Below, one piece after another: positions 201-48,116 of a stretch of 64,000 nt of DNA. Position numbers and translations under genes: made by a program. Below the pieces are notes generated by a model. That model ran no database searches, was not told the DNA's origin, and saw only the letters and a program-made list of their open reading frames with translations. This DNA is from Candidatus Parcubacteria bacterium (GTDB lineage: Bacteria; Patescibacteriota; Minisyncoccia; UBA6257; HR35). The stretch lies in NCBI GenBank assembly GCA_026004535.1, contig BPJI01000001.1, positions 431,424 to 495,423 on the forward strand, given 5' to 3'. Numbering within the stretch: position 1 is the stretch's first letter; each line of letters opens with the position of its first letter.

Positions 201-1664
201 TCAAACTTTATATTTTTTCTTTATTTCTTCTTCTTTTTGTCTTTCGATTGATTCTATTTTTTCTTCGCCAATCAAAGCTAATTCTTTTAATTTCTCATCT
301 GGTAAGTCTTTTAATTCTTTAGCTCTTTCAATTAAATATTCCTTGTTATTTTTAGTTGGATCATCAATAACTTCTTCTAATAAAGCTTTCAAGATCCAAC
401 CAATTTTAGGACCATGAGGAACGCCTAGATTCAACAAATCATAACCATTGATATTTAACATTTTCGGAGTGATTGGCTCTAAATGAACTTTTTCAATTAA
501 ATATCTTAAATATCTAAGTCGATAAGGTTCAGCTTTGGGAACTCCAGAACCAATTCTATCAGCGTGTCTTAACTTAAATAAATCCTCCAAATTTTCTTGG
601 CCAACACGTCTAACTAAACGACGAACAGCAGCTGGAGTTACTTTATCAATTTCTAAATAAAACATATGCTGACTTACAAGGTGAGTAACTTTTTTAATAA
701 TTTCATTTGAATATCTCAATCTTTCTAAAATTCTTTTTGTGATTTTAGCTCCTAAAATTTCATGACCATAAAAAGTACAATTAGGTCCTTCGCCTTGTTT
801 AGTTAAAGGTTTGGCAATATCATGGAACAAAACAGCCAATCTTAAATATAAGGGATAATTTTTTTTAACTGCATAATCCAAGGACTTTAAAGAATGAAGA
901 TAGACATCATATTTATGGTGTTTATTTTGGCCAACACCATAACATCTATCTAATTCTGGCAAAATTTCCTTTAATAAATTGGTTTGTCTTAAAAGTTCAA
1001 TGCCAATAACAGCATTTCGACTCATTATAATTCGATTAAATTCATCTCTAATTCTTTCATGAGCTATGTATTGAATTAGATAAGCAAATTTTTGGATTGC
1101 TTTAAAAGTTTTTGTCTCAATTGTAAAATTTAATTCACAAGCTAATCTAATAGCCCTCATTAATCTTAAAGCATCTTCACGAAATCTTTTTTCAGGATCA
1201 CCAACTGTTCTGATGATTTTATTTTTTAAATCTTTAATCCCATCAAAAAGATCAATAATATCTCCATCAATACTTAGAGCTAAAGCATTAATAGTAAAAT
1301 CTCGGCGCTGAAGATCTGTTTCTAAATCTTTAATAAAAATGACCTCTTCTGGCCGACGTAAATCACGATATTCTTTTTCTTGACGAAAGGTTGTAACTTC
1401 AATTACTCTTAGGGTTTCGTCTTCGGAATTAGTTTTAATACCTACAGTACCGAACCTATTTTCGTAGAAAGCATTAGGAAAAATTTTTAAAATTTCCTCA
1501 GGTAAGGCATCAGTTGTAATATCCCAATCTTTTGGCTTACGATCAAGTAAAAGATCACGAACACAACCACCAACAAGAAAAGCCTGATAGTTATGATCAA
1601 TTAATTTTTGCCAGATTTGTAGAACTTCTGAGGGCAGGGAAGAGATTTGGATTTTTTTTAACAT
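201..1664 (-). CDS. cca: CCA-adding tRNA nucleotidyltransferase with HD domain
   Basis: 487 aa. N-terminal GGCVRDLLL..DWD polymerase-beta nucleotidyltransferase motif, plus an HD phosphohydrolase region. Confidence 0.85.
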   Translation of the reverse strand: MLKKIQISSLPSEVLQIWQKLIDHNYQAFLVGGCVRDLLLDRKPKDWDITTDALPEEILKIFPNAFYENRFGTVGIKTNSEDETLRVIEVTTFRQEKEYRDLRRPEEVIFIKDLETDLQRRDFTINALALSIDGDIIDLFDGIKDLKNKIIRTVGDPEKRFREDALRLMRAIRLACELNFTIETKTFKAIQKFAYLIQYIAHERIRDEFNRIIMSRNAVIGIELLRQTNLLKEILPELDRCYGVGQNKHHKYDVYLHSLKSLDYAVKKNYPLYLRLAVLFHDIAKPLTKQGEGPNCTFYGHEILGAKITKRILERLRYSNEIIKKVTHLVSQHMFYLEIDKVTPAAVRRLVRRVGQENLEDLFKLRHADRIGSGVPKAEPYRLRYLRYLIEKVHLEPITPKMLNINGYDLLNLGVPHGPKIGWILKALLEEVIDDPTKNNKEYLIERAKELKDLPDEKLKELALIGEEKIESIERQKEEEIKKKYKV

Positions 1665-1674
1665 TGTTTTGTTA

Positions 1675-1745
1675 AGCGGGATACGGGAATTGAACCCGTG
1701 TCTCCACCATGGGAAGGTGGCGTTGAGCCACTCAACTAATCCCGC
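1675..1745 (-). tRNA. tRNA-Gly (anticodon CCC)
   Basis: The reverse complement folds as a cloverleaf: acceptor GCGGGAT/ATCCCGC, D stem GTTG/CAAC, anticodon stem CCACC/GGTGG with loop TTCCCAT, and a GTTCAATTC T arm. Confidence 0.8.
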
Positions 1746-1918
1746 TTTAATTAGATTATATCATACATTCTTTTACATTATTAACTTTAAATTATCATAA
1801 TATAAATAATATAATTTATTACACTTGATTTTTAAAAAATTTTAGGATAAAATTATAAAAATTTAAAACCTATTTAATTTTGTAAAAAAAAATTAATTTT
1901 GTAAAAAATAAAAAATGG

Positions 1919-2296
1919 ATGGCAAAGAAGATAATAATAGGTACAAATTTGATATTAGATATTATCAATGTAGACTCTGCTGTTTTGAGTAAGAGAAAAA
2001 ATATTTTAGACTTGCTTAAAAAATTAATTAAGGAAACTAAATCAACTCCTGTCTCTAAACCATTCATCAAAAAAATAAAATCACCTAAATACCCTTATGA
2101 AGGTTATTCAGTTATTCAAATTATTCAAGAAAGTCATATTGCTATTCATACTTGGCCTGAATATAATTATCTAGCTATTGACATTTTTTCCTGTAAGAAA
2201 ATTAATGAGAATAAAATAATCTTTATTTTAAAGAAGATATTTAGCAAAAATACAAGAATTAAAGTAAAAATTTATCAAAGAATAGCCGAGTATTAA
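1919..2296 (+). CDS. speH: S-adenosylmethionine decarboxylase proenzyme (class 1, pyruvoyl-dependent)
   Basis: 125 aa. Carries [11 protein letters not shown]...AIDIFSC, the AdoMetDC self-cleavage (ES) and active-site Cys region. Confidence 0.75.
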
Positions 2297-2625
2297 TTTT
2301 AGTTCGTAAAACAATTATTTTGCGAATTTATAAATGTTCTCTCTTAAAAAAAGCTTATTTAATTGGAATTAATTGAATCTCCATCTTTTTACCTACTCTC
2401 AAGTTCTTTCCCAAATTTTTAATCAATCATTTGATCATTTGATATTGATATTTGCGGTTCTCGTAGTAAAAGTTAAACCACAGCAATTTTAATAAAAATT
2501 TTTAGAGACACCAGCTATGATACCACAGTTCTCGTTGGTTCAGAAATTATAGAATAGAAAAGCAATGTTTTGTTAGGCAAAAATTTTAAATTGGTAGTCA
2601 TAACTAACTTCCGAGTTGGTGATGT

Positions 2626-2835
2626 TTATAAAATTTTAGAAGCCCTTAAAAGTTCAATTATTTGATCAATATCTTTTTCTTCAATAGGCAGCTTAATTTC
2701 GGTTGGTTGATGTTGTTTGAAGTAAATTTCATTTCCCTGCCCTATTTTTTGAGCTAAAAAAAATATTGTTAAACCATTAATCAGAATCACAACTGAAATA
2801 TAAATAATCATTATGGCTAATTTTGCTTTTTTCAT
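2626..2835 (-). CDS. hypothetical small membrane protein
   Basis: 69-aa ORF with one TM helix. Its start overlaps the upstream gene's stop (ATGA). Confidence 0.3.
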   Translation of the reverse strand: MKKAKLAIMIIYISVVILINGLTIFFLAQKIGQGNEIYFKQHQPTEIKLPIEEKDIDQIIELLRASKIL

Positions 2836-3356
2836 TTTGTCTGTAAATTTAATTCAATATTCAAATTATTGTTAATTTTATCAATTTTAAAATTGATTGT
2901 TTGCCAAATTAAACCACTTTCAATCATAAAATTGGAAAATTTTTCCAAATCGCTCTCGGGCAACTGAAAAATAAAAGTTAATTTTTTTTCTTGTTGATTA
3001 AAACTTGTTGTTTGAATTGACCAATTCTCTTTTTGTAATTTTTCATTAACCAAATTTTTAGTTGTCTCAAAATCTCGATCTAATTTTTGATTAGCTTCAA
3101 ATAAAATTGTTTTTAATTCCTTACCAGTTTTTTGTTCAATCAAACTAACTATCTTTTTTATTTTATTTTGACTTTCAATTGTCGCTTGGTTTTGAATCAA
3201 TTTTTCTTTTAAATTATTAATCTCGTTTATTTTTGCCAAAGTTTTTTGGGAATAAAAATTAAGTATAAAAAAATAACCAACAGTTATCAGAAGAAAAATA
3301 AGAGTAAAAACAGCTATCTTTAAATAAATTTTATTTAATGTCTGATTATGGCCCAT
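2832..3356 (-). CDS. hypothetical membrane-anchored coiled-coil protein
   Basis: 174 aa with an N-terminal TM helix and a K/E/Q-rich coiled coil. It resembles PilN/PilO-type assembly proteins only in architecture. Confidence 0.35.
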   Translation of the reverse strand: MGHNQTLNKIYLKIAVFTLIFLLITVGYFFILNFYSQKTLAKINEINNLKEKLIQNQATIESQNKIKKIVSLIEQKTGKELKTILFEANQKLDRDFETTKNLVNEKLQKENWSIQTTSFNQQEKKLTFIFQLPESDLEKFSNFMIESGLIWQTINFKIDKINNNLNIELNLQTK

Positions 3357-3360
3357 TAAT

Positions 3361-3530
3361 TATTCATTACCCGGATATGGAACGGATAAATTAACTGGAT
3401 GTAAACCGGATGATATTATTAATTATTTTTACTCGGATTTACACCGGATAAACTACCCTGATTATAACCGGATATATCTGGTATTCATCCGGGTAATTAA
3501 TCAGGTATTTAATCCGGGTAATCTATTTAA
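3361..3530. repeat. ccggat-word repeat element (direct block, then inverted atccggg block)
   Basis: About a dozen (a)cccggat / aaccggat words at ~11-13 nt spacing, followed by the reverse-complement words catccgggtaa / aatccgggtaa. Confidence 0.8.
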
Positions 3531-5432
3531 TTATAACTCTTTTTCTTTAATTTCAACAAAAATTTCTAATTCCTCTTTAGTAATTATCTCTTCTTTAATT
3601 TTACCTAAATGTTCTAAGGGCGTAGCGAAAATTTCCTTGATAATTGCTCGAGGATTAATTTTGTTTTTCTTATTAAATTCCATTTGATATTTTCTTCTTC
3701 TTTGGGTTTCCTTTATGGCAGCTTCTAATGATTTGGTTATTTTATCAGCATACAAAATTACTTTACCTTCTAAATGACGAGCACTTCTCCCGATTGCTTG
3801 GATTAATGTTGTTGTATTTCTTAGAAATCCTTCGCGGTCAGCATCTAAGATAGCTACTAAGGAAACTTCAGGCAAATCTAATCCTTCTCTTAGAAGATTA
3901 ACTCCGACCAAAACCTCAATTTCGCCTGTTCTTAATTTTTTTATAATCTCTGCTCTTTTTAAGGTTTTAATATCTGAATGTAAATAGTTCGCTTTAATTC
4001 CCTGCTCTAATAAAAATTCAGTTAAATTTTCGGCTGATCTTTTAGTTAAAGTTAAAACCAAAACTCTTTGATTTTTATCAAGTCTTTCTTTTATCTCTTT
4101 TAATAAATCTAAAACTTGATTTTTAGTTGGTCGCACTTCAATTTCTGGATCTAAAATACCTGTTGGCCTTACTAGTTGTTCAACGATCTGCGAAGAAATT
4201 TTTCTTTCAAAAGGTCCAGGAGTTGCTGAAACAAAAATAATCTGGAAATTTTTATTGAAAAATTCATCAAATGTTAAAGGCCGATTATCGATTGCTGAAG
4301 GTAATCTCCAGCCATATTCAACTAAAATTTCTTTTCTTTTTCGATCACCATTAGCCATTGCTCTTAATTGAGGAATGGCTAAGTGCGATTCATCAATAAA
4401 CAAAATTGTTTCTGATGGTAAATAATCTAATAAAGTATATGGTGGTTCACCTGGATTTCGAAAAGATAAATGCCTTGAATAATTTTCAATTCCAGAACAA
4501 TAACCATATTTTTCTAAAAGATGAATATCTAACAAGGTTCTTTGTTTAATTCTTTCAGCTTCAACAATTCTTCCCTGCTCCAAAAATTGCCAATATCTTT
4601 CTTTTAATTCTTGTTTGATATTTAAGATAGCAATGTCTAATTTTTCTTTGGGGGTGACAAAAAATTTAGCTGGAAAGATTTTAATATATTCTAATTCTTC
4701 ATAATCTCCAGTTATTTCTAATTTAAAAACATCCTCTCTTGATTTTTTGATTGTAAATTTTTTAATTGATTTTATGATTTTGTTTTGCCATTTAATTTCT
4801 AACATATAACTTCCGTCAGGGTTAAAAATGTAAATTCCTGAATTTTCTCGGTCATAAATATATGTTCCTGATCTGATTGTATTCAAACTTCCTTTTTCAT
4901 ATTGTAATGTTTTTAAATAATCAATAACATCTTTAAGGGAAATTTTTTGGCCAACATTTAAATTTAAACAAATATTTTTATATTCTTCAGGATCACCAAT
5001 GCCATAAATACAACTAATTGAGGAGACAATAATAAAATCTTTTCTAGTTAAAACACTTTCAATGGCAGCATGACGAAGTTGATCTAAAAGCTCATTAATT
5101 CTTGCATCTTTAGCAATATAAATATCTGTTTCAGGTAAATAAGCTTCCGGCTGGTAATAATCATAATAACTAACAAAATAATGAACTGCATTTTCAGGAA
5201 AGAAATATTTAAATTCTTGATAAAGTTGAGCCGCCAAAACTTTATTAGGTGAAAGAACCAAAGCAGGCCTTTGAGTTTTATAAATAACATTAGCCATAGA
5301 AAATGTTTTTCCACTGCCAGTCACTCCTAAAAGTGTTTGAAATCTATAATTTTTATTCAATCCGGCAACTAACTTTCTAATTGCTTGAGGCTGATCTCCA
5401 GATGGTTTGTAATCCGAAATCAATTTGAACAT
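3531..5432 (-). CDS. uvrB: excinuclease ABC subunit B
   Basis: 633 aa. Walker A GVTGSGKTF, UvrB helicase motifs and a C-terminal UVR-like helix. Confidence 0.9.
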   Translation of the reverse strand: MFKLISDYKPSGDQPQAIRKLVAGLNKNYRFQTLLGVTGSGKTFSMANVIYKTQRPALVLSPNKVLAAQLYQEFKYFFPENAVHYFVSYYDYYQPEAYLPETDIYIAKDARINELLDQLRHAAIESVLTRKDFIIVSSISCIYGIGDPEEYKNICLNLNVGQKISLKDVIDYLKTLQYEKGSLNTIRSGTYIYDRENSGIYIFNPDGSYMLEIKWQNKIIKSIKKFTIKKSREDVFKLEITGDYEELEYIKIFPAKFFVTPKEKLDIAILNIKQELKERYWQFLEQGRIVEAERIKQRTLLDIHLLEKYGYCSGIENYSRHLSFRNPGEPPYTLLDYLPSETILFIDESHLAIPQLRAMANGDRKRKEILVEYGWRLPSAIDNRPLTFDEFFNKNFQIIFVSATPGPFERKISSQIVEQLVRPTGILDPEIEVRPTKNQVLDLLKEIKERLDKNQRVLVLTLTKRSAENLTEFLLEQGIKANYLHSDIKTLKRAEIIKKLRTGEIEVLVGVNLLREGLDLPEVSLVAILDADREGFLRNTTTLIQAIGRSARHLEGKVILYADKITKSLEAAIKETQRRRKYQMEFNKKNKINPRAIIKEIFATPLEHLGKIKEEIITKEELEIFVEIKEKEL

Positions 5433-5439
5433 GATATAA

Positions 5440-5530
5440 TTATATCACTGACATTGAACTAACAGAACTGACACTGAAACTTACAGAATTAATATAATCT
5501 AAGTTCCATAAGTTCTGCGTTTGTATATTC
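5440..5530. repeat. cagaac/gttctg-word repeat element in the uvrB / phosphohexomutase divergent intergenic region
   Basis: The words aacagaactgacactgaaacttacagaatt are followed by inverted ttccataagttctgcg. Confidence 0.6.
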
Positions 5531-5534
5531 CAAA

Positions 5535-6947
5535 ATGCTCTTAACTGGTTATGATTTAAGAGGTATTTTTAAAAAAGAATTGACTTTTGATGTTATTTAT
5601 CAAGCAACTAAACAGTTTTTTAAGAAATTAAAAATTAGAAAAGCCATTTTGGCTGTTGATGCAAATAGAAATAATTTTTTAATTAAAGATTTCTTAGAAA
5701 GAAATTTCAATCTTGAGTTTATTGGCGTTCTACCAACGCCAATTTTTTATTATAAAGTCATTAAAATAAAAATTCCTGGAATTATGATTACTGCTTCTCA
5801 TTTGCCTTTAAAATATTCGGGGTTGAAATTTATTTTAGAAAATGGCGAACCGTGGAAACCTTATATTAGCGCGTTGCCTTCGGGTCATACCCCCGAAGCC
5901 CACAGCCCTCGGAGTGCTATCGTACGCACCTCTGCCGGAATGACCCTCAGGCAAACGCGCCGGATAATTAATTTACAAAAGCACCAGATAATTAAGGAAT
6001 ATTTTAAAACTTTATTTTCTATCATCAAACCGAAAAAGAAAATTTTTGTTTGTTTTGATAAGAAAAATTTTTTTCTTAATGCTTCCCTACCCTATTTTGA
6101 AAAATTAAAAATTTTTCATCAAGATAATTCTCCAATTAAGATTAAATCTGATTTAGACAATGACAGAATTTTTGTTTATCTTAAAAAAAGAAAAATTCAT
6201 AATGATTTAATTTTTTATTATTTAGCTCTTTTGCCTCAATATAAGAAATTGGCTGTGCCAATATTTTTCAGTCAAAAACTAAGACAAGAACTTATTAAAA
6301 AAGGTAAGAAGATTTATTTTATTCCAACTGGACACTATTATTTCAAAAAAGCATTCAAAAAATATAATTTAGACTTAGGTTTTGAACCAAGTGGTCATTT
6401 TTATATGTTTAAAGATTTAAAAACAGAATCGCCCTATTTGGCCTTAGGTTTATTTTTACATTTATTAGCAGAACTTACGGACCTAACACAGACAGAACGG
6501 ACCAAACAGAGAATAGCCTTGGAGGAAATTTTAAAATTAAATAATTCACTTCAACTTTATCGTTTTGATATTAAGAAAATACAATCAGAAGAAAATGTTG
6601 TCTCTTTTTTGAAGAAGAGATATAAGTTAAAATTAAAAAAGTTTGACGGTTATTTATTATTTCCAAAGGAAAAAACAGAACTTACAAAACTAACACAGAA
6701 TTTAAATAAAAATACTATCGCAGAACTTACTGAACTAACACAGAACTTACAGAAAAATACTACCTCAGAAATTGCAGAACTAACACAGAACTCGCAGAAA
6801 AATTCAGTGAGTTCTGCGTCAGTTCAGCATGGTTCTGCGTTCTACCTGTATTTAAGGAAAAGCAAAACAGAAAATAAATTAAGAGTATCTTTTGAAGGCG
6901 ACAAAAAAATTCTCAAAGAAATAAAACAATGGCTCATGAAGATTTAA
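5535..6947 (+). CDS. phosphoglucomutase/phosphomannomutase-family protein carrying in-frame repeat insertions
   Basis: TASHLP (active-site Ser, SHNP-like) and GFEPSGH (GEESGH-like) phosphohexomutase motifs. Interrupted by a GC-rich ~100-nt insert and by ELTxLTQN repeat blocks. Confidence 0.6.
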   Translation: MLLTGYDLRGIFKKELTFDVIYQATKQFFKKLKIRKAILAVDANRNNFLIKDFLERNFNLEFIGVLPTPIFYYKVIKIKIPGIMITASHLPLKYSGLKFILENGEPWKPYISALPSGHTPEAHSPRSAIVRTSAGMTLRQTRRIINLQKHQIIKEYFKTLFSIIKPKKKIFVCFDKKNFFLNASLPYFEKLKIFHQDNSPIKIKSDLDNDRIFVYLKKRKIHNDLIFYYLALLPQYKKLAVPIFFSQKLRQELIKKGKKIYFIPTGHYYFKKAFKKYNLDLGFEPSGHFYMFKDLKTESPYLALGLFLHLLAELTDLTQTERTKQRIALEEILKLNNSLQLYRFDIKKIQSEENVVSFLKKRYKLKLKKFDGYLLFPKEKTELTKLTQNLNKNTIAELTELTQNLQKNTTSEIAELTQNSQKNSVSSASVQHGSAFYLYLRKSKTENKLRVSFEGDKKILKEIKQWLMKI

Positions 6948-8776: not shown

Positions 8777-8826
8777 TTCAACTAACCGTCTAACACGATA
8801 TAGCATCTTAAACAGTCAAATTAATG
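8777..8826. repeat. left copy of a ~46-50 bp direct repeat flanking the pilin cassette
   Basis: caactaaccgtctaacacgAtatagcaTCttaaacagtcaaatTaat, which matches 10675-10724 at roughly 46 of 50 positions. Confidence 0.75.
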
Positions 8827-8977
8827 TTTACGACGTCGTACGTCGTAAAGTAAATATAACGACGTGCGACGTCCAGATATTGAGAAAATAATATTTAGGA
8901 CATCGCACGTCTTAAATTATTTTCCGTGTCCGATTCCGTTCATTTCGCCTTTAAATTTTAGCACAATTTTCCACATC

Positions 8978-9005
8978 TTGACATCATATTTTTTCTATTT
9001 ATAAT
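8978..9005 (+). promoter_or_regulatory. near-consensus sigma70-type promoter for the pilin gene
   Basis: TTGACA (8978-8983), 16-nt spacer, TATAAT (9000-9005), 7 nt upstream of the ATG at 9012. Confidence 0.5.
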
Positions 9006-9011
9006 TAAATT

Positions 9012-9332
9012 ATGAATAAAAAAATGAATAAATCCTTCACTTTAGTTGAACTTTTAGTTGTCTTAGCTCTAATAGCTATCTTAGCTACTGTCTTAATTGT
9101 TGTCATTAAGCCAGCAGATATCTTTAAAAGAGGTAGAGATAGTCAAAGAACTTCAGACCTTAAAAATCTTGAAAAAATATTTGACCTTATTCTTTTTGAA
9201 ACTCAAGGCACCTTTTCTGAACTTCAATATGCTTCCTCAAATGTTGTCTATATCTCTCTTCCTGATACTTCATCAACTTGTGGTCAATGGATAAGTCAAT
9301 TACCACAGCTTCCTTCAGGCTGGTCATATTGA
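9012..9332 (+). CDS. type IV pilin-like protein (prepilin N-terminal methylation domain); the ORF ends at an in-frame TGA
   Basis: N-terminus MNKKMNKSFTLVELLVVLALIAILA is a class III signal with the conserved Glu5. The same frame continues with no further stop into the LamG domain downstream. Confidence 0.7.
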   Translation: MNKKMNKSFTLVELLVVLALIAILATVLIVVIKPADIFKRGRDSQRTSDLKNLEKIFDLILFETQGTFSELQYASSNVVYISLPDTSSTCGQWISQLPQLPSGWSY

Positions 9333-18940: not shown

Positions 18941-19765
18941 TCAGTAAATATCTTCTAGTTCTTCTTTCAAAACAATTGTTGGATTTTCGACTGCTTGATT
19001 TAGATTATCAATAATATTTCTGAATAAATCATCAAATTCTGTTGGTAGTCTTTTTCGTTTATAAGGATTTGCATAAGAAATAATTTGTTGATAAACATAA
19101 GGATGCCATTTGCCTAAATCTTTTAATTTTTGAGCAATCTCTTTAACTAAAGCATTAGCTTCTAAAACTTTCTCTGCTCGGGCTTCTCTAATTTTTAAAG
19201 CTTCGGGTAATTTTTCGTCCAAAAAGAAATCGCATTTTTTCAAAATTGGCTCGAAAGAACTACCTGCCAGTTTTTCTTGTTTTTCATAACTAATTCCTAA
19301 AGTTACATAATAAGCTTGCTCAATTGAATCAACCAGCTCAGGATCTGATTCTAACATTTCTGAATTAGATTGTAAGTATTGACGATAAATAGCAATAGCT
19401 ACGTGAGATTTTTCGCGAATATTTAATTCTTTCTCAATATTAAAGTTCATCATTAATTGAGCTAATCTTTGAGGGACAACAATTGCTGGAATTTCTCTGA
19501 TGCCAAGTTCTTTAGCTGCTAAATATCTGTGCTGACCATCAATAATAGTATAAGTGTCATTATTTTGGACAACAACGACCGGAACAATAAAACCAATTCT
19601 TTCAATTGAATTAGACAAATGTTTAACGTGATAAGAACTTGGTTTTCTTTGATGAGAAATAACTGATAACTTATCAATGGGAATTAATTTAAATTTTAAA
19701 TTTTGATGATGATAGGGATCAGCAAACTCTATCTCTGGTTGTAATTTGGTTTTTCTTGGAGCCAT
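18941..19765 (-). CDS. ParB-like nuclease domain protein
   Basis: The IIDGQHRYLAAKELGIREIPAIVV ParB/Srx N-terminal domain motif. Confidence 0.6.
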   Translation of the reverse strand: MAPRKTKLQPEIEFADPYHHQNLKFKLIPIDKLSVISHQRKPSSYHVKHLSNSIERIGFIVPVVVVQNNDTYTIIDGQHRYLAAKELGIREIPAIVVPQRLAQLMMNFNIEKELNIREKSHVAIAIYRQYLQSNSEMLESDPELVDSIEQAYYVTLGISYEKQEKLAGSSFEPILKKCDFFLDEKLPEALKIREARAEKVLEANALVKEIAQKLKDLGKWHPYVYQQIISYANPYKRKRLPTEFDDLFRNIIDNLNQAVENPTIVLKEELEDIY

Positions 19766-19774
19766 TTTATTATA

Positions 19775-19895
19775 TATTAACCGGATAAGTTACCCGGATT
19801 ATAACTGGATATAACTACCCGGCTTTTTACCGAATTCATTATGACAAAATAATCTAGGTGACTATCCGAGTAATCTATCCGGTAAGTTATCCGGG
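19775..19895. repeat. ccggat-word repeat element
   Basis: aaccggataagttacccggatt..., then inverted tatccgagtaa / atccggtaa / atccgggcaa words. Confidence 0.75.
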
Positions 19896-21613: not shown

Positions 21614-23689
21614 TTAACGAATTGTTATTCCATATCTACTTTTTAAATTTTCTTCAATTTTCCGCATTTCTAAGTTAACATCTTCATCAGTTAAACTTCG
21701 TTGGGGGTGGAAAAAAATAAACCTGATTGTCATTGATTTTAAATTTGAAACCTCAGAATTTTGAGGAAAATAAACGTCAATTAATTTTATTTCCTGAAGA
21801 TAATTTATTTTTAATCTCTCAATTTCCATCTTTAATTGACTAAATTTAATTTTTTCATCAATAAAGAATGATAGATCTCTGATAATTTGAGGAAAAATTG
21901 GCCAAGGATGAAAAACTTTTTTCATCACAGATCTTTTTTTTAATGTATTTGTATCTAATTCAATTACACCAACATTTAAATCAATGTCCAGTTCGCTTAA
22001 AATTTTTTTCTTAATTAAACCCAAAATGCCGACATTATCAATTTTTATTCCTGCGGTTAAAAATTCGTTTTTAATTTCTTCTAATTTCAAATTCAAGCAT
22101 AATTCTGAAGCAATAAAATTTAAAACACCCTTTAATTCCTTTAAAATTTCTTCGGGTGTTAATTTACTGGCATAAACGATTCCCAAATGATATTTCTCAA
22201 CCACGGATTCACGCGGATTTAAAACGGATTTGCGCGGATTATATTGAGCCACGGATTCACGCGGATTTACACTGATCTCTTTATAAGCTACTTTACTTAT
22301 TTCAAAAATTTTGATTTCCTTAAAATTAAATTGATTAAGATAAACAGATTTTAATAAATTAGGAATTAAACTCGATTGAAAATATTTATAATTTTCACTA
22401 ATTGGATTTAAAACCTCGACCACGGATTTTCGCGGATTTAAAATATCAACCACGGATTCACGTGGATTTTCTATACGCATAACATCATTTAATCTATATA
22501 ATCCTTGCAGTTCTTTCTCTCCATAAAAACTATAATTATGACCTTCATCATAACCAGCTTTGGTTAATATTTTTCTTAAAAAATTATTAAAAACAATATC
22601 TTCTTCAATGAAAATTTCTCTTAAGGGTGATTCATAAATTGGTTTAATTTTATTTAAATCATATATCCTTATAATTTCTTCAACAATATCTGTTTCCGTT
22701 TGTAAATCTAATCTCTCCAAAGGTACAATTAATTGATCATTTTTAATTTTGATGCCTAATTTTTTAAAAATTTTCAAAATTTCTTTTTTATTAATTTCTA
22801 AACCGGTGATTTTTTTAACTTTGTCAAAATTAAATTTTATTTTAGTCTCCCTTAATTTTTTCTCTCCAAAAATTTTTCTTAAAACATCTCCGCCTAAATT
22901 TCTATTAATTAAATAAGAAACCCTATTTAAGGCTTGCAAAGCTCTTATTGGCGCTACTTTTCTTTCAAAACGAAAACTTGCTTCTGTTTTCAAATTTAAC
23001 TTTCTTGAAGTTTGATAAATTTTAGTCGGGTCAAAAACTGCCGCTTCAATAAAAATATTTTTTGTTTTTAAATCAATTTCTGCTGTTTTGCTTCCTTTAA
23101 TTCCAGCTAAACCTAAAATTTTTTCTTTATCAGCAATAACAATTTCATCACCTTGAAGCTCATATTCTTTCCCCTCTAAAGAAATAAATTTTTCTCCTTT
23201 TTTAGCTAAACGAACATAGATATTGCCTTTAATTTTGTCCAAATCAAAAATATGAAGTGGTGCCCCATATTCAATCATCACAAAATTAGATAAATCAACT
23301 AAAAAGTTAATTGAATTAAAACCGTAAAATTCAACAAATTCTTTTAACCAACCCGGAGAAGGTTTATTTTCAACATTTAAAATTATTCTGCCAAAATAAT
23401 AAGGCGCTAATTTTGAATTAACAATCACTTTGAAGTTTAAACTTTTTGCTTTAGATTGTAGATTGTTAATTTTTAATTCTTTTGAGATTAAATTTTTTAT
23501 TATTGCTACTTCTTTAGCTAAACCAATTAAACTCGCTGCATCAGGATAACGATTAGGCAAAATATCAACCTCTAAAATTCCATCATTATAAACAGTCTCG
23601 AAACTTTTCATTGTCAATTCACTAGCAATTTTTTCCCAGTCTAATTTTTTATTTAAATATTTTTCTAAATCTTTTATTCTAAATTTCAT
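21614..23689 (-). CDS. pheT: phenylalanine--tRNA ligase beta subunit, carrying in-frame cacggat repeat insertions
   Basis: B3/B4, B5 and C-terminal FDX-ACB domains. NPRESVV..NPRKSVV peptide repeats are encoded by cggatt word arrays at 22196-22270 and 22425-22478. Confidence 0.8.
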   Translation of the reverse strand: MKFRIKDLEKYLNKKLDWEKIASELTMKSFETVYNDGILEVDILPNRYPDAASLIGLAKEVAIIKNLISKELKINNLQSKAKSLNFKVIVNSKLAPYYFGRIILNVENKPSPGWLKEFVEFYGFNSINFLVDLSNFVMIEYGAPLHIFDLDKIKGNIYVRLAKKGEKFISLEGKEYELQGDEIVIADKEKILGLAGIKGSKTAEIDLKTKNIFIEAAVFDPTKIYQTSRKLNLKTEASFRFERKVAPIRALQALNRVSYLINRNLGGDVLRKIFGEKKLRETKIKFNFDKVKKITGLEINKKEILKIFKKLGIKIKNDQLIVPLERLDLQTETDIVEEIIRIYDLNKIKPIYESPLREIFIEEDIVFNNFLRKILTKAGYDEGHNYSFYGEKELQGLYRLNDVMRIENPRESVVDILNPRKSVVEVLNPISENYKYFQSSLIPNLLKSVYLNQFNFKEIKIFEISKVAYKEISVNPRESVAQYNPRKSVLNPRESVVEKYHLGIVYASKLTPEEILKELKGVLNFIASELCLNLKLEEIKNEFLTAGIKIDNVGILGLIKKKILSELDIDLNVGVIELDTNTLKKRSVMKKVFHPWPIFPQIIRDLSFFIDEKIKFSQLKMEIERLKINYLQEIKLIDVYFPQNSEVSNLKSMTIRFIFFHPQRSLTDEDVNLEMRKIEENLKSRYGITIR

Positions 23690-23700
23690 TGTTATGTATT

Positions 23701-23800
23701 ACCCGGATAACCAACCGGATTATTTTACCCGGATGATTACCGGATAAATCCGGTTTATATCCAGGTAGTATTATCCGGTTAATATCCGGGTAAAAATATT
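23701..23800. repeat. ccggat-word repeat element
   Basis: acccggataaccaaccggatt..., then atccaggta / atccggtta / atccgggtaa. Confidence 0.75.
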
Positions 23801-23823: not shown

Positions 23824-24831
23824 TTAAAATTGTCTTATAAATCTCAAATCTGAAGAATGTAAAATTCTAATGTCATCAATACCATGCTCTAACATTATTA
23901 ACCTATCAACACCAAAACCAAAGGCATAGCCTTGATATTTCTTATAATCAATCCCAGCTGACTTTAAGACAAAATCATGAACCATGCCAGCACCAGCGAC
24001 TTCAATAAAACCAGTTTTTTTACAAATTATACATCCTCTTTGTTTACAAAAAATACAACCAATGTCAATTTCTAATCCAGGTTCAACAAAAGGAAAATAT
24101 CCTGGTCTAAATCGAACAGGTAAATTTTCTTTAAAAAATCTTTCAAAAAATTTCTCAACCACATATTTTAAATGACCTAAATTGCTATTTTCGCTAATTG
24201 AAATTCCGTCAAGTTGATAAAATTCAAAATCATGGGTTTTGTCAATTGCTTCGTAACGAAAAACTTTACCAGCAATTATTGCTCTTATCGGAACTCCATA
24301 TTTCTTTAAAACAGGAACTTGAAAACAAGAAGTATGAGTTCTAAATAATAATTCTCTATTTTTTACCCATAAAGTGTCCCAAAGATCCCTGGCTGGATGA
24401 TGCGGAGGAATGTTTAAGTAATCAAAGTTTTCTTTTTCATCAACGATTTGAGCATAATCAACGACACTAAAACCTAACTGAATAAAAATATCAAAAATTT
24501 TATTAATTGTTTGGGAAATCAAATGTTCTTTACCAACTTTAATTTCTCTACCCGGATGTTCAAAATCAAATTTAATATTAGTCTCTAGTAAAAATTCTTT
24601 TTTTTGCCGATAAAGATTTTCAATTTTTCTTTTAAGTTCGTTATAAAGACTGCCAATTTTTCTTTTTTCTTCAATTTCTAATTTTTTTATTAATGATGGA
24701 AAATTAGCTAAATAACTTTTTCGACCTAAATATTTTATTAACAAATTTTCCAATTCACTTAAACTCTTAACACTAGTAAATTCTTTTTCTGCTTCTTGCC
24801 AAATTTTATTTAAAGTTTCTTCAAGAGACAT
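23824..24831 (-). CDS. pheS: phenylalanine--tRNA ligase alpha subunit
   Basis: Class II aaRS motifs, including FRPGYFPFVEPGLEID. Confidence 0.9.
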   Translation of the reverse strand: MSLEETLNKIWQEAEKEFTSVKSLSELENLLIKYLGRKSYLANFPSLIKKLEIEEKRKIGSLYNELKRKIENLYRQKKEFLLETNIKFDFEHPGREIKVGKEHLISQTINKIFDIFIQLGFSVVDYAQIVDEKENFDYLNIPPHHPARDLWDTLWVKNRELLFRTHTSCFQVPVLKKYGVPIRAIIAGKVFRYEAIDKTHDFEFYQLDGISISENSNLGHLKYVVEKFFERFFKENLPVRFRPGYFPFVEPGLEIDIGCIFCKQRGCIICKKTGFIEVAGAGMVHDFVLKSAGIDYKKYQGYAFGFGVDRLIMLEHGIDDIRILHSSDLRFIRQF

Positions 24832-26640: not shown

Positions 26641-26780
26641 AATACTACCCGGATGATTACCTGATAAAAATATCTACCTGGATAAATACCGGATTATTTT
26701 ACCCGAATGCTTACCAGATAAATCCGGTTTGAATCCGGGTAACTATATCCGGCTAATATCAGGGTAACTAGTTTCTTTAT
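26641..26780. repeat. ccggat-word repeat element
   Basis: tacccggatgattacctgataaaa..., then atccggtt / atccgggtaa words. Confidence 0.75.
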
Positions 26781-27152: not shown

Positions 27153-27535
27153 TAGGCAGACAGCAGCGGAAAATCTTAAAACGCAGACAGCTGCGGAAAT
27201 GCTTTAACTACCCGGATGGTCTATCGGATATAATTACCCGGATAGCTTATCGGATAATGTTTATCCAGATGAATACCGGATTATTTTATCCGGATGATTA
27301 CCGGATATTTATCTAACCGGATAACTTACCGGATATAGTTACCCGGATAAACTAACGGATATAATTACCCGGATTAATAACCGGATAAAAATACTCTATA
27401 TATCATCCGGTCTATATCCGGGTAGTTCTATCCGGTTCATAGCCGGGTAGTATTATACGATTATAATCCGGGCAGAAAATATTTTCAGCTGCTGTCTGCG
27501 GTAAATACTCTGACCACTGCTGTCCATATTAATAA
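27040..27535. repeat. composite repeat hotspot: cagctgc block, ccggat direct+inverted block, ctgctgtc block
   Basis: 27040-27200 holds gacagctg / cagctgc words. 27205-27480 holds ccggat and atccgg words. 27481-27535 holds cagctgctgtctgcg. Confidence 0.8.
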
Positions 27536-34720: not shown

Positions 34721-37501
34721 TTAATATTTCATTTGCAACCTTATTTTTCTATTAATTTTTGCTTTTTCTAAAATAACATTCTTTGTTTTTTCAAATCGCT
34801 TAAAGTTTTCTTGGTTCAAAAATTCTTCAAGTTCTTTTTCCTCAACAAAAGCACCGATATAAGGAATTGTTGATTTTAATATTTTAATTAAAACAAAATC
34901 ACTTTTACCTGGCCCACCACCTTTTTCTTCTAATTTTTGCCAATTTTCTTTTAACCAATTAAAAGTGAATTTTGCTGCATTTGAATTTAAAGAAACTGAA
35001 TTGAAAAAGAAAATAGTCTGATTAAATCTAACTTGTGAAGAAAGAATAAATTCAAAAATAGAACTTAACTTTTCTAAATTTTGTAAATTACCAAAAGCAA
35101 TTAAACATTTATTTTGTTCTTCAATCAAATTAGTCTGATGATAATAATTCAAAAGTTTTTCTAAATAGTTATCATTAGCAATTAAAGCATTATTAAAGAT
35201 TGCTTGTTTAATATCAGGATGAAGTTTTTCTTTGTCTTTTAAAAATTCTTCAAATTTTTCTTGGCTGAAATCTAAAATCTCTTTATTCTTCAAAATTCCC
35301 AAAGAAAATAGAGTTTTTTGCCTTAAAACTGTTTCATAAGGTTGTTCACCTTCCCTCGGCTCTTTTCCTAAAATATCCAAAACTTTTAAAGAAAATTTTT
35401 CTAATAAAGCGGAAAGGTCAGAAACGGACGCGGAACGAACGGAATAAGCGGAACTGGTTTTTCCGTCTGTTCCATTTTTTCCGTGTCCGTTTCCGTCTGT
35501 TCTGCTTTGATCTGTATCAATTCTGCGCAGTTCCGCGTTTAGTCTGCGTTGGTCTACGTCTATCCTGCGTTGGTCTGCGTTTAGTAAATAATAATAAAAA
35601 TTTAAATAAGAAATAATTTCACTAAAAACAAAGGGTTTAGAATTATTGATAAAATATTTTTCTAAAATTTCTAAAAAGTTTTCAAAATTTTTCTCACCCT
35701 TTCTAACTAACATATCATAATCATGAACTAAATGAACCTGATCAATTTCATTTAATTTTTCTAAATTCTCTAAATTTCTTTTTAGAATTTCTTCATCATA
35801 ATCACTAACAAAAAAACTTGAATAGTTTTTATTAAGAATAAAAGTTGAAAAATTAGATTCAGGAATTGGGGCGATTTCTTCTTTTTCTTTTAATATTTTT
35901 CTTTCTTCTTTATTATCAATTTCAATCACAAAAGGAATTTTCCAATAATCTTCTCTGTCTTCTAAAAATAAGAATCTCCTTTGTCTTAAACAGTATCTGC
36001 CTTGCTCTTTTTTAAAACTTACCAAAGGATAGCCAACTTTTTCAATATAATCTTTCATAATCTCAACCACTGGCACACTCGAAACTTCTTCTAAGCATTG
36101 CCACAAATCTTCTGCTTTAGCATTTTGATAAGTAAATTTTTTAATATACAGCCTCAATCCTTCTCTAAATTTTTCTTCACCTAAATAATTCTCAATCATC
36201 CTTAAAACACTGCCACCTTTTTCATAAGATATCTCATCAAAAATTTCAACTGACTCATTTGGATCTTTAACCTCAACTTTAATCGGGTGAGAAGCAATCA
36301 AACCATCAGCATTCAAAGCACTAAAAACTTCATCCAAAACATATTTTTCTAAAATTCTCCAATTAGGATAAAAATTATTAACAGCTTTATAAGCTAAATA
36401 AGTGGCAAAGCTTTCATTTAACCATAAATCGTCCCACCACTTCATTGTTACTAAATTACCAAACCACATATGAACTAATTCATGAGCAATAACTTCAGCA
36501 ATTCTTTCTTGGGTAGATTTTGGTGTTATGCCTTCGAAAACTAAAAGTAAATTCTCGCGAAAAGTAATTGCTCCCCAATTTTCCATTGCTCCAGCAGCAA
36601 AATCAGGAACAGCGATTAGATCTAATTTTTTTAAGGGATAAGGGGAATCAAAATATTCTTCTAAATAATTTAAAAATTTTTTAGCATTTTCTAAAGCAAA
36701 TCTTACTCCTTCTAATTTTTCCTTTGGCGTAACTGCCACTCGAATAATAACTTCTTTATATTTATCTTCAACAAAATACCAATCACCAATTCCAATATAC
36801 AAAAGATAAGTTGACATCTTGGGAGTTGTTTCAAAAATCACTTTTTTCTTTTCATTAACAATTTCTTCTTTAATTGGCAAAGTATTGGAAATTGCTTTTA
36901 ATTCTTTAGGAAAAATTAAAGTTAAATCAAACGTTGCTTTTTTATCTGGGTCATCAAAACAAGGAAAAGCTTTGCGTGCTTCAATTGGTTCAAATTGAGT
37001 TGTGATTAAACATTTTTCTTGTTCTTTGTCTTTATATTTACTTAAATAAATTCCTCCTAAAACCTCTTTTAATTCTCCTTCAAAATCAATAAAAATAGTA
37101 TTATCTTTTTCAGAAAAATTATTTTTAATCAAAATTCCATCTTTTTGAACTTCAAAATCTACATCTTGGTCATTCACTTTTAGCTGATTAATTTTTAAAT
37201 CAACAGCATCAATTTTTAGAAAATTACCCCGATGATCACCTGATAGATTACCCGGATAATTGTCTGGCATATTACCCGGATAATCACTGGATAAATCCGG
37301 TTCATATTCGGGTAGTATTATCCGGTTAATATCCGGGTGGTTCCATCCGGTTTGAATCCGGGTAGCTGTATCTGGTTTTAATCCGGGTAAACTAATTCTT
37401 ATCTCTTCTCTGCCTCGATAAATATTCTTCTCTAAATCAAAGTCTAATTCAATTTTATAATTTCTAACTTCCATTATTTTTCCTTGATAAATTTTCAACA
37501 A
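34721..37501 (-). CDS. pepN: aminopeptidase N (M1 family) with in-frame repeat insertions
   Basis: GAMENWG exopeptidase motif and HELVHMWFGNLVT...WLNESFA zinc motif. The acggaa/ctgcg element at 35395-35580 and the ccggat element at 37228-37392 sit inside the ORF. Confidence 0.85.
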   Translation of the reverse strand: MLKIYQGKIMEVRNYKIELDFDLEKNIYRGREEIRISLPGLKPDTATRIQTGWNHPDINRIILPEYEPDLSSDYPGNMPDNYPGNLSGDHRGNFLKIDAVDLKINQLKVNDQDVDFEVQKDGILIKNNFSEKDNTIFIDFEGELKEVLGGIYLSKYKDKEQEKCLITTQFEPIEARKAFPCFDDPDKKATFDLTLIFPKELKAISNTLPIKEEIVNEKKKVIFETTPKMSTYLLYIGIGDWYFVEDKYKEVIIRVAVTPKEKLEGVRFALENAKKFLNYLEEYFDSPYPLKKLDLIAVPDFAAGAMENWGAITFRENLLLVFEGITPKSTQERIAEVIAHELVHMWFGNLVTMKWWDDLWLNESFATYLAYKAVNNFYPNWRILEKYVLDEVFSALNADGLIASHPIKVEVKDPNESVEIFDEISYEKGGSVLRMIENYLGEEKFREGLRLYIKKFTYQNAKAEDLWQCLEEVSSVPVVEIMKDYIEKVGYPLVSFKKEQGRYCLRQRRFLFLEDREDYWKIPFVIEIDNKEERKILKEKEEIAPIPESNFSTFILNKNYSSFFVSDYDEEILKRNLENLEKLNEIDQVHLVHDYDMLVRKGEKNFENFLEILEKYFINNSKPFVFSEIISYLNFYYYLLNADQRRIDVDQRRLNAELRRIDTDQSRTDGNGHGKNGTDGKTSSAYSVRSASVSDLSALLEKFSLKVLDILGKEPREGEQPYETVLRQKTLFSLGILKNKEILDFSQEKFEEFLKDKEKLHPDIKQAIFNNALIANDNYLEKLLNYYHQTNLIEEQNKCLIAFGNLQNLEKLSSIFEFILSSQVRFNQTIFFFNSVSLNSNAAKFTFNWLKENWQKLEEKGGGPGKSDFVLIKILKSTIPYIGAFVEEKELEEFLNQENFKRFEKTKNVILEKAKINRKIRLQMKY

Positions 37502-39840: not shown

Positions 39841-39990
39841 ATTTTTACCCAGATTATAACCAGATAATACTACCCGGATATTAACCGGATATAACTACTC
39901 GGATTCAAACCGGATACAAATACCCGGATATAAACCGGTATTCATCCGGGTAATCTATCCGGTATTAATCCGGGCATATTAATAAAATCT
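39841..39990. repeat. ccggat-word repeat element
   Basis: taacccagat / aaccagat / acccggat words, then catccgggtaa / atccggtatt / aatccgggca words. Confidence 0.8.
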
Positions 39991-47454: not shown

Positions 47455-47512
47455 TTAGTATAGTCTGCGTAGTTCTGCGTTAGTTCTGCATAAGTCTGCG
47501 GTTTATTTTAGA
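47455..47512. repeat. ctgcg-word repeat element
   Basis: tagtctgcgtagttctgcgttagttctgcataagtctgcgg. Confidence 0.6.
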
Positions 47513-48059: not shown

Positions 48060-48116
48060 ATAATTTATTGATTTCTGTAGGTTCTGTATTAGTTCTGTTA
48101 GTTCTGTGTGTTTAAT
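48060..48116. repeat. gttctgt-word repeat element
   Basis: ttctgtaggttctgtattagttctgttagttctgtgtg. Confidence 0.6.

Follow-up and report, generated by a model that had tools for sequence, protein, structure and literature searches.

Repeat arrays translated within pheT of a Parcubacteria genome share their unit and reading frame with the ends of GxxExxY nuclease cassettes

The gene for the beta subunit of phenylalanyl-tRNA synthetase (pheT) in a 64,000-nucleotide stretch of a Candidatus Parcubacteria genome (assembly GCA_026004535.1, contig BPJI01000001.1, forward-strand positions 431,424 to 495,423; hereafter the window, in whose numbering positions are given) contains two blocks of short DNA words, rich in guanine plus cytosine (GC), that are translated as NPR(E/K)SV peptide repeats. 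The blocks are insertions in the gene, and their repeat unit is the same, in the same reading frame, as the downstream terminal repeat of cassettes in other phyla that carry a gene for a GxxExxY protein, a member of a PD-(D/E)XK nuclease family. We think it probable that the pheT blocks derive from single arms of a selfish repeat associated with the nuclease, here translated in frame, the inverted copies of which form the ends of GxxExxY cassettes elsewhere. In the Parcubacteria clade of the window, arrays of such words are much expanded, use words that differ between lineages, and are found both between genes and in frame within housekeeping genes, where they occupy recurrent sites. A first-pass annotation of the window, made from the sequence alone, had drawn attention to the pheT arrays; its interpretation is partly supported by our analysis, and it had missed the genome-wide and clade-wide arrays, their presence in at least four other genes, and the cross-phylum repeat that flanks GxxExxY genes. 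Selfish repeats translated inside genes are a kind of feature already known, and the nuclease-associated repeat system behind them is the less certain and more interesting part of our reading.

The pheT gene lies downstream of pheS (23824-24831) in a window with a GC content of 28.5%, and it holds five copies of an approximately 20-nt, two-word unit, CCACGGATTCACGCGGATT, in one orientation throughout and divided between two blocks (Table 1). The units sit on the plus strand and are therefore read on the minus strand, in the pheT frame, where they encode five NPR(E/K)SV peptides between residues 408 and 497; the first-pass annotation had correctly recognized both these peptides, as the product of cacggat word arrays, and the uniform orientation of the words. 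Each unit is a pair of words, CCACGGATT and CACGCGGATT, placed 10 nt apart, and the units, which are 62-90% identical to one another, are also present at other loci. The 19-mer CCACGGATTCACGCGGATT is exact at 22201 and 22249, and recurs with one mismatch at 22450 and with two at 22420. The window holds 12 occurrences of CACGGATT against 0.68 expected, a number never reached in shuffled sequences, and four of CGCGGATT against 0.34 expected, all four of them in pheT. The two blocks are also the GC maxima of the gene (0.47 and 0.42, versus 0.15-0.35 in the rest of it). All insert lengths are multiples of 3 nt, no insert contains a stop codon, and peptides that span the insert junctions include ESVVDILNPR, SVVEVLNPISENYK and ESVAQYNPR. 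The predicted RNA folds of these one-arm arrays are no more stable than those of shuffled sequences (z of 0.01 and -0.51).

Tandem Repeats Finder reports a period of 30 nt at 22404-22469. This clean tandem period in block 1, and the fact that the Asn-Pro codons of the native LNPIS motif (AAT CCA) match the start of the unit, would fit an origin of the blocks purely by slipped-strand events, in which native pheT sequence was duplicated locally, starting from the AATCC of the Asn-Pro codons, with no relation to any dispersed repeat. We regard such an origin as very unlikely, since two separate sites some 200 nt from each other have identical 19-mers, the same unit is found in intergenic DNA of the window and in at least 120 foreign contigs, and four other genes carry arrays of sister word families.

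Comparison with orthologous proteins, in alignments of 26 and of 116 homologues, shows that most of them have neither block. The best homologue is 62% identical to the window PheT and the nearest others are 60-62% identical, mostly with lengths of 647-655 residues, so that the 691-residue window protein exceeds the typical length of about 650 by some 41 residues, in good agreement with the approximately 40 added residues that had been estimated before. At site 1, just before VEVLNPIS, the window PheT is longer by about 18-20 residues, and at site 2, between FEISKVAY and E.YHLGI, it is 21 residues longer than the protein of the related locus L002 in a codon-level comparison. Both blocks are absent from the more distant orthologues in the two alignments, and neither site is occupied in P0002, P0036, P0038, P0047, P0051, P0055, P0062, P0070, P0091 and P0095. 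The three site-2 units are specific to the window lineage; the site is empty in L002 (WEKEKINEG) and in many others. Block 1 stands immediately N-terminal of the conserved LNPISE strand, and its LNPIS-adjoining unit is common to relatives, the other unit being a 30-nt tandem duplicate. Several orthologues of 57-62% identity (P0003, P0006, P0009, P0011, P0013-P0015 and P0017) have a single N(P/Q)R(K/E)S(V/A) unit directly before VEVLNPIS, with variants such as NQRESAVEV and NPRKSVVEV. The peptide NPRKSVVEVL is identical in the window and in L002 and yet differs at five synonymous positions in ten codons; the unit therefore predates the split of these lineages and has evolved as protein sequence, kept since the separation from relatives that are only about 60% identical.

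The conservation of this one unit bears on the possibility that the repeats are a native and functionally selected loop of PheT, for instance one that contacts tRNA or a partner protein, rather than foreign DNA. A general sharing of an NPR(E/K)SV region by orthologues had been named at the outset as the result that would count against an insertion, and what we find is sharing of one unit by several 57-62% relatives, with the peptide kept through synonymous divergence, and no trace of the repeats in any more distant orthologue or, at site 2, in L002 and a large number of others. In further relatives the peptides found at these sites are unrelated ones, encoded in other frames and on the other strand, both loops are modeled with low confidence (see below), and the same 19-mer occurs at no fewer than 120 unrelated loci. 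A native loop is for these reasons highly improbable in our judgment. The conserved site-1 unit may represent a selfish repeat on its way to being fixed as part of the protein. Across the 116 homologues, PheT inserts recur at about six positions (reference residues of approximately 66-85, 154, 316, 400-423, 471-495 and 551), and such recurrent sites mark positions in conserved enzymes that tolerate insertions.

Within the protein, the two blocks occupy loops of the catalytic-like domain. Pfam assigns B3_4 to residues 95-263, B5 to 284-343, CLM (B6/B7, PF17759) to 367-579 and FDX-ACB to 597-691; both blocks are within CLM and therefore do not lie between B3/B4 and the catalytic-like module, where the first-pass annotation had located them. 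An AlphaFold2 model built from the 116-sequence alignment has a mean predicted local distance difference test (pLDDT) score of 88.2, with values below 50 only at residues 400-409, 411-414 and 475-492. In this model, block 1 is a coil between the helix at 391-398 and the LNPIS strand, and block 2 forms the tip of a hairpin made by the strands at 458-472 and 494-508. The model resembles bacterial PheRS beta structures in a Foldseek comparison (TM-score of 0.72-0.78). The inserted peptide probably has little or no function in PheT, the retention of the LNPIS-adjoining unit notwithstanding. Apart from the inserts, the window PheT and its Parcubacteria homologues of about 650 residues align with solved bacterial beta chains only from chain residue ~155, and the protein therefore appears, from these alignments, to be missing the B2 (EMAP-like, tRNA-binding) domain of those chains.

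The pheT loci of five relatives with conserved synteny (L001, L002, L003, L124 and L125) provide a further view of the same sites. Each array-bearing lineage has its own over-represented words: ACGGAT/ATCCGCG in L001, CGCAGAC/CGCGGAC in L003 and TACCCGAAT (CCGAAT) in L124. In L001, L003 and L124, site 2 of PheT holds a complete element of the hairpin type, with its plus arm ahead of its minus arm and composed of the lineage's own words, and in L003 site 1 holds a four-word module in the opposite orientation, so that arrays of either orientation have been accommodated at the same PheT sites. All nine arrays in the 13 kb of L003 (1-13182) are intragenic, in CysRS, PepM1 (two), TruB (two), a NUDIX gene and PheT (three), and they are mostly very regular four-word modules with spacings of 10, 11 and 10 nt. 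L002 and L125 have almost no arrays. Differences in density as large as these argue against an essential chromosomal function and fit lineage-specific bursts. Because the genome was assembled from a metagenome, and assemblers are known to have trouble with repeats, we also considered whether the pheT blocks could be an artifact of assembly or binning, produced by repeat-induced misassembly. We find this scarcely credible, given that every insert is in frame and free of stops, that the flanking domains are intact and modeled with confidence outside the loops, and that analogous inserts appear at the same PheT sites in independent assemblies (JGI, ENA, NCBI and Logan). Two lesions of other kinds were seen at these loci, namely two frameshifts beside an (AAAGTC)n tract in L001 pheS (8802-9834) and one in-frame TAA in L125 PepM1 (940-3402). 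Neither is caused by the word arrays; sequencing errors, pseudogenes or recoding could account for them.

The connection to a nuclease gene came from occurrences of the unit outside Parcubacteria. An exact scan of metagenome contigs placed the 19-mer at 120 loci or more, in unrelated and mostly high-GC bacteria; among the matches listed, 114 of 125 were in contigs of about 57-60% GC. A genome scan with a degenerate 17-mer gave matches, often in local clusters of words, in Terriglobia, other Acidobacteriota, Planctomycetota, Bacteroidota, Verrucomicrobiota, Chloroflexota, Poribacteria, Defluviitaleaceae, Luteimonas and two archaeal metagenome-assembled genomes, with no Parcubacteria record among the matches listed. 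We had entertained the idea that these matches were the noise of large GC-rich genomes and discarded it when re-analysis revealed local word clusters in many phyla. Clustering of the open reading frames (ORFs) near the 19-mer matches uncovered a small protein that recurs in different phyla and matches Pfam PDDEXK_3 (PF13366; E of 1e-37 to 1e-39) and NCBIfam TIGR04256, "GxxExxY protein". Three plus words (C[AG]CGGAT) stand ahead of its ORF and three minus words (ATCCG[CT]G) behind it, 10 nt apart, and both the start and the stop of the ORF fall inside words, such that the protein ends in ...NPRESVAK, in the frame used in PheT. In L138, L142 and L210, GxxExxY ORFs run at their ends into an exact copy of the 19-mer AATCCGCGTGAATCCGTGG, which continues directly downstream. 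The pheT unit, with its 10-nt spacing, has the heptamer layout of this word family, in which C[AG]CGGAT / ATCCG[CT]G words follow one another directly at 10-11 nt.

To remove the ascertainment bias of sampling by words, we also collected the family with a protein-profile search (8000 candidates, all with E <1e-5). In the best 120 of these 8000, every homologue has a word-encoded tail, of the NP(R/C)ESV, DPRESA or NQRKSV type (...KKIRENP(R/C)ESVAK, ...IRVDPRESAA and ...ISDNQRKSVA), and 51 of the 120 begin with the plus-word peptide MSHGFxRI (HGFxRI). Two cassettes retrieved as DNA (L259 1453-1941 and L260 1476-1961) are each wedged exactly between operon partners, with word triplets abutting the neighboring genes. 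One lies between ispD and ispF and is flanked by three copies each of CGCGGAT and ATCCGCG, and the other, between the methylmalonyl-CoA mutase gene and meaB, uses the variant words CACAGAT / ATCAGCG. The 87 distinct 19-mer copies that could be evaluated comprise 56 solo minus arms, 21 short hairpins, four ORF-containing cassettes and six with other spacings; arms without an ORF therefore greatly outnumber cassettes. In-frame use of the unit extends beyond Parcubacteria as well, since MnmG of several Acidobacteria contains it in the C-terminal helical domain (…EEIRANPRESVASISS…; ...IRANPRESVAS...), the loci orthologous to that of L147 being L043, L093, L132, L150, L170, L179, L188 and L191. The L147 gene for MnmG/GidA (1563-3710) has in addition a second repeat-like insert, …SEERSDEACPERSRREP…. 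A further copy, at L143 1786-2055, resembles a MITE (miniature inverted-repeat transposable element), being about 270 bp long, with ends TGAACCACGGATTCACGCGGATT…AATCCGCGTGAATCCGTGGTTCA and an internal segment of about 190 bp, and it contains no GxxExxY ORF; a BLAST comparison of a MITE-like copy with plasmids gave no match. Finally, the insert ARMNTNLIHKD of P0054, a PheT from the candidate phyla radiation (CPR), resembles the cassette 5' junction RMNTNLKHKD, a likeness between short peptides that is suggestive only.

Returning to the window, the pheT blocks are part of a much larger population of some 20 GC-rich word arrays in 64 kb, most of which are intergenic hairpins of plus and minus copies (Table 1). 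For the word CGGAT, about 20.5 occurrences would be expected on each strand, where 72 and 57 are present, and the words of the window group into 13 clusters of at least three. The main family has a 25-26-nt unit, TACCCGGAT-N-AACCGGAT-N, with the plus copies in one run and the minus copies in a second run after it, and its arrays form long hairpins; the minus words often, and inconsistently, end in GGGTAG or GGGTAA. Further families are built from CGCAGAC and CAGAAC words. The array in the pheS-pheT spacer, which presumably lies within one pheS-pheT transcript, is a near-perfect 96-nt hairpin (-53.1 kcal/mol, z of -6.95). The first-pass annotation had equated the words in pheT with those of the intergenic element at 16382-16620. 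The two are indeed related, and the pheT blocks are built from words of CGGATT type. The claim of identity fails, since the best matches of the element to the pheT 19-mer have 3-4 mismatches, CGCGGATT is absent, and the element contains both orientations (plus arm, 16382-16484; minus arm, 16500-16620), its left part having an RNA fold z of -3.3. Rfam searches gave no family at the arrays of the window or of 12 element-bearing loci.

Table 1. Positions of pheT, its repeat units and the other word arrays of the window
Feature	Position	Strand	Description
pheT host gene	21614-23689	-	691 codons (ORF list); five repeat units in frame
Unit NPRESVV	22448-22468	-	Residues 408-414; minus-strand sequence AATCCACGTGAATCCGTGGTT
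Unit NPRKSVV	22418-22438	-	Residues 418-424; minus-strand sequence AATCCGCGAAAATCCGTGGTC
Unit NPRESVA	22247-22267	-	Residues 475-481; minus-strand sequence AATCCGCGTGAATCCGTGGCT
Unit NPRKSVL	22220-22240	-	Residues 484-490; minus-strand sequence AATCCGCGCAAATCCGTTTTA
Unit NPRESVV	22199-22219	-	Residues 491-497; minus-strand sequence AATCCGCGTGAATCCGTGGTT
Block 1 (site 1)	22409-22468	-	Residues 408-427, NPRESVVDIL-NPRKSVVEVL; two 30-nt units
Block 2 (site 2)	22199-22267	-	Residues 475-497, NPRESVA-QY-NPRKSV-L-NPRESVV; three units, 27 and 21 nt apart
Intergenic element	16382-16620	.	CCACTGATTTACACGGATA and complement; CACGGAT/CACTGAT variant; 27-nt period; no ORF
pheS-pheT spacer hairpin	23700-23795	.	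Main-family words TACCCGGAT / AACCGGAT and complements
Largest intergenic main-family array	12295-12606	.	About 15 plus words, then about 5 minus words; period 25
Other intergenic arrays	3372-3516, 5447-5488, 10343-10486, 19782-19893, 26650-26751, 27213-27470, 39875-39972, 47464-47500, 48081-48107		
Enolase array	52021-52155	-	In frame; main family; residues 229-273; TSNLSGYEPDNLPGLQPDKLPGFKPDTDNLPGYKPDLSGNHPGNN
Aminopeptidase N (M1) array 1	37223-37387	-	In frame; main family; residues 30-84
Aminopeptidase N (M1) array 2	35408-35581	-	In frame; residues 632-689; ACGCAGAC-type words; plus and minus arms
Phosphoglucomutase-like gene array	6672-6839	+	In frame; CAGAAC / CGCAGAA words; residues 380-435
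Phosphoglucomutase-like gene, shorter array	6468-6518		ORF 5535-6947
NDH-2 (Pyr_redox_2) array	49929-50090	-	In frame; CAGAAC / GTTCTG hairpin type; residues 305-358

At least four other genes of the window carry in-frame arrays of sister word families. The array in enolase (ORF 51541-52839, minus strand) adds 45 residues (…YEPDNLPGLQPDKLPGFKPDTDNLPGYKPDLSGNHPGNN…) to the C-terminal TIM-barrel domain (Pfam Enolase_C), folds as RNA with a z of -5.6, and coincides with a break in the alignments to solved enolases. Aminopeptidase N (ORF 34721-37474, minus strand) has arrays of 55 and 58 residues from different word families, the first absent from the L003 and L125 orthologues and the second from that of L003. 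The L003 protein, PepN, is 62% identical and has two different array inserts of its own, so that the two genes are related by reciprocal, array-shaped indels. The same holds for NDH-2 (ORF 49569-51002), whose insert is missing from the 55% identical L003 orthologue, again with reciprocal array indels. The CAGAAC / CGCAGAA arrays of the phosphoglucomutase-like gene and NDH-2 encode peptides that include AELTELTQNLQKN….

One could argue that arrays of this kind serve, as DNA or as RNA, as binding sites for a protein of the nucleoid or of segregation, regulation or DNA uptake, selected for their density along the chromosome and falling within genes where there is little room between them. The words are conserved and the spacers variable, the spacing of 10-12 nt is about one helical turn, the compact L003 locus has all nine of its arrays within genes, and solo arms in Acidobacteria often lie just upstream of start codons. 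We nevertheless consider this explanation unlikely. Array density varies widely, to almost none in L002 and L125, which is against an essential role; the pheT blocks are without RNA structure (z of 0.0 and -0.5); uptake sequences build up as single words by point mutation and not as inserted arrays; and the window ORFs checked against Pfam include no candidate binding protein. Several more specific identities were discarded in the same way. The 3-8-nt spacers are too short for tandem interspaced guide RNA (TIGR) arrays or CRISPR-like arrays, and the arrays lie inside genes; CsrA-type GGA arrays do not account for sister word families without GGA; DnaA boxes and parS show only partial resemblance, and there are far too many sites; inteins or introns would be far larger and have catalytic features; and DNA uptake sequences (DUS/USS) are scattered single words of 9-12 nt rather than inserted arrays that lengthen proteins. 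A link to phages was also set aside, the viral-contig scan for the main-family dimer having returned 13 isolated matches and no arrays, which we attribute to chance.

We therefore return to the interpretation of the pheT blocks as derivatives of a nuclease-associated repeat. In this scheme, the arrays would spread as non-autonomous derivatives of the cassette, either by copying that depends on the nuclease or by recombination or gene conversion between copies, and would subsequently grow by tandem duplication, as the periods of 21, 27 and 30 nt suggest. On this reading, the nuclease may be what mobilizes the repeats. Arrays may persist within genes because the unit is open in five of its six reading frames and because selection would retain only those copies that enter tolerant surface loops.

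Several points weigh against this interpretation. Binding or cutting of the words by the nuclease is a supposition on our part, and the word triplets could instead serve as expression or regulatory signals of the cassette. A hidden Markov model search of the window and of ~90 kb of related loci (L001-L003, L124 and L125), ~150 kb in all, yielded no GxxExxY gene and nothing below E = 0.1, so that a local driver is hypothetical. The main family, TACCCGGAT / AACCGGAT (CCGGAT), is not linked to any gene. The conserved NPRKSV unit of site 1 could mean that the peptide has acquired a function, and the recurrent sites could reflect selection alone, without targeting. With the best PheT homologue only 62% identical and no close strain in the databases, recent gain, loss or change in copy number is not directly observable. 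Pfam searches found no nuclease and no transposase among the small ORFs beside arrays, and no Y1 transposase among the selected window ORFs.

Of the systems known to us, the closest in outcome are the Rickettsia palindromic elements (RPEs) and the intragenic GTAG/CGTC repetitive extragenic palindromic sequences (REPs), for which in-frame copies in housekeeping genes, those for tRNA synthetases included, have been documented (PMC3733652, Di Nocera et al. 2013). Like the arrays described here, these are short dispersed repeats of small, AT-rich genomes that insert in frame into housekeeping genes, add 20-80 residues, often as dimers or clusters, and are thought to be tolerated at permissive positions (PMC3733652). 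The pheT blocks likewise interrupt a conserved gene in frame at permissive positions. They differ in that the pheT unit is a pair of direct 9-10-nt words rather than a palindrome, that its single-arm arrays have no hairpin potential, and that array copy number is highly expanded with several word variants coexisting. An RPE is a palindrome of about 100-150 bp, whereas the pheT copies are one-arm arrays of 60-69 nt that lack dyad symmetry and reside in a Parcubacteria host; it is on these properties, and not on a direct sequence comparison, that we set them apart. Nor does the pheT unit form the stem-loop of a REP, which is an imperfect palindrome of 20-40 bp, being instead a direct word pair with the fold scores given above, and AATCCGCGTGAATCCGTGG contains neither the GTAG or CGTC tag nor their complements.

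At the level of the cassette, the most instructive comparison is with REPs, REPINs (REP doublets forming hairpins) and their REP-associated tyrosine transposases (RAYTs), the REPtron. In both cases, a small enzyme gene is bracketed by inverted repeats, most copies have no ORF, and the repeats differ between lineages. Here, however, the bracketed gene encodes a PD-(D/E)XK nuclease (PF13366) where a REPtron has one for an HUH/Y1 transposase, direct words in triplets 10 nt apart take the place of stem-loops at the ends, the ORF starts and stops inside the repeats, and different phyla share one 19-mer, whereas a given REP is as a rule confined to one species or genus; mobilization of the cassette, moreover, is a proposal of ours. 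The GxxExxY family itself (TIGR04256 / PF13366) shares with pheT an identical unit, the downstream terminal repeat of its genes, read in the same frame as the ...NPRESVAK tail, the difference being that pheT holds the repeat only and no gene. PF13366 has been listed as a family of unknown function with multiple horizontal transfers (PMC3424549). In the one literature library that we searched, there was no description of the repeats flanking GxxExxY genes, with only incidental mentions of GxxExxY/PF13366, and our literature search likewise found nothing on repeats in coding genes of Parcubacteria or the CPR.

Two other classes of coding repeats share some features with the arrays. In-frame MITEs of Coxiella burnetii are non-autonomous, GC-richer than their compact or AT-rich host genomes, and able to become coding (PMC5896051). 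The Correia elements of Neisseria and the GC clusters that are mobile in yeast mitochondria are likewise non-autonomous, GC-richer elements. All of these have a defined length, terminal inverted repeats and target-site duplications, in contrast to the variable-copy arrays described here, which have no detectable duplication. Palindromic amphipathic repeat coding elements (PARCELs) are also coding repeats within genes; they show dyad symmetry as DNA and have been reported from organisms whose genomes are minimal. Their 25-residue amphipathic domain is found in surface and accessory ORFs, as opposed to the 7-10-residue inserts in housekeeping enzymes seen here, and the pheT units, at 7-10 residues, are predicted to be coil.

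If these comparisons are taken together with the survey of cassettes, a broader proposal can be made, which we advance only tentatively: that GxxExxY (PF13366) PD-(D/E)XK genes bracketed by word triplets with 10-nt spacing are a class of selfish cassette, so far unrecognized, that is very widespread and extends over bacteria and some archaea; that their ORF-less arms and hairpins are the counterpart of REPINs with a different enzyme; and that in some Parcubacteria the repeats may have diversified into several word variants, reached a density of about one array per 3 kb and colonized essential genes (pheT, eno, pepN, pgm and ndh) in frame. Should this be true, the expansion of repeats would be reshaping a minimal genome's proteome. 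The genomes of the CPR are considered highly streamlined. A 64-kb stretch with about 20 arrays, among them in-frame arrays in no fewer than five conserved genes including that for an essential aminoacyl-tRNA synthetase subunit, indicates that a reduced genome can tolerate repeat DNA. The link to GxxExxY also suggests a testable role for a very large uncharacterized family, in a system like that of REPs and RAYTs with a different enzyme. On the practical side, the arrays lengthen proteins, create apparent lineage-specific insertions in marker genes and can split gene calls, and they may confuse assembly and phylogenomics of the CPR.

Some features of the window adjoin the arrays. Genes for a TrwB/TraG-like coupling ATPase and RmuC (12976-16381) lie upstream of the 16382-16620 element, and a gene for a ParB_N-domain protein with a weak GmrSD_N match (18941-19765) adjoins the array at 19782-19893. 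Within the phosphoglucomutase-like gene, an 81-nt segment of 63% GC (5886-5966) encodes HTPEAHSPRSAIVRTSAGMTLRQTRRI and is not composed of words of these families.

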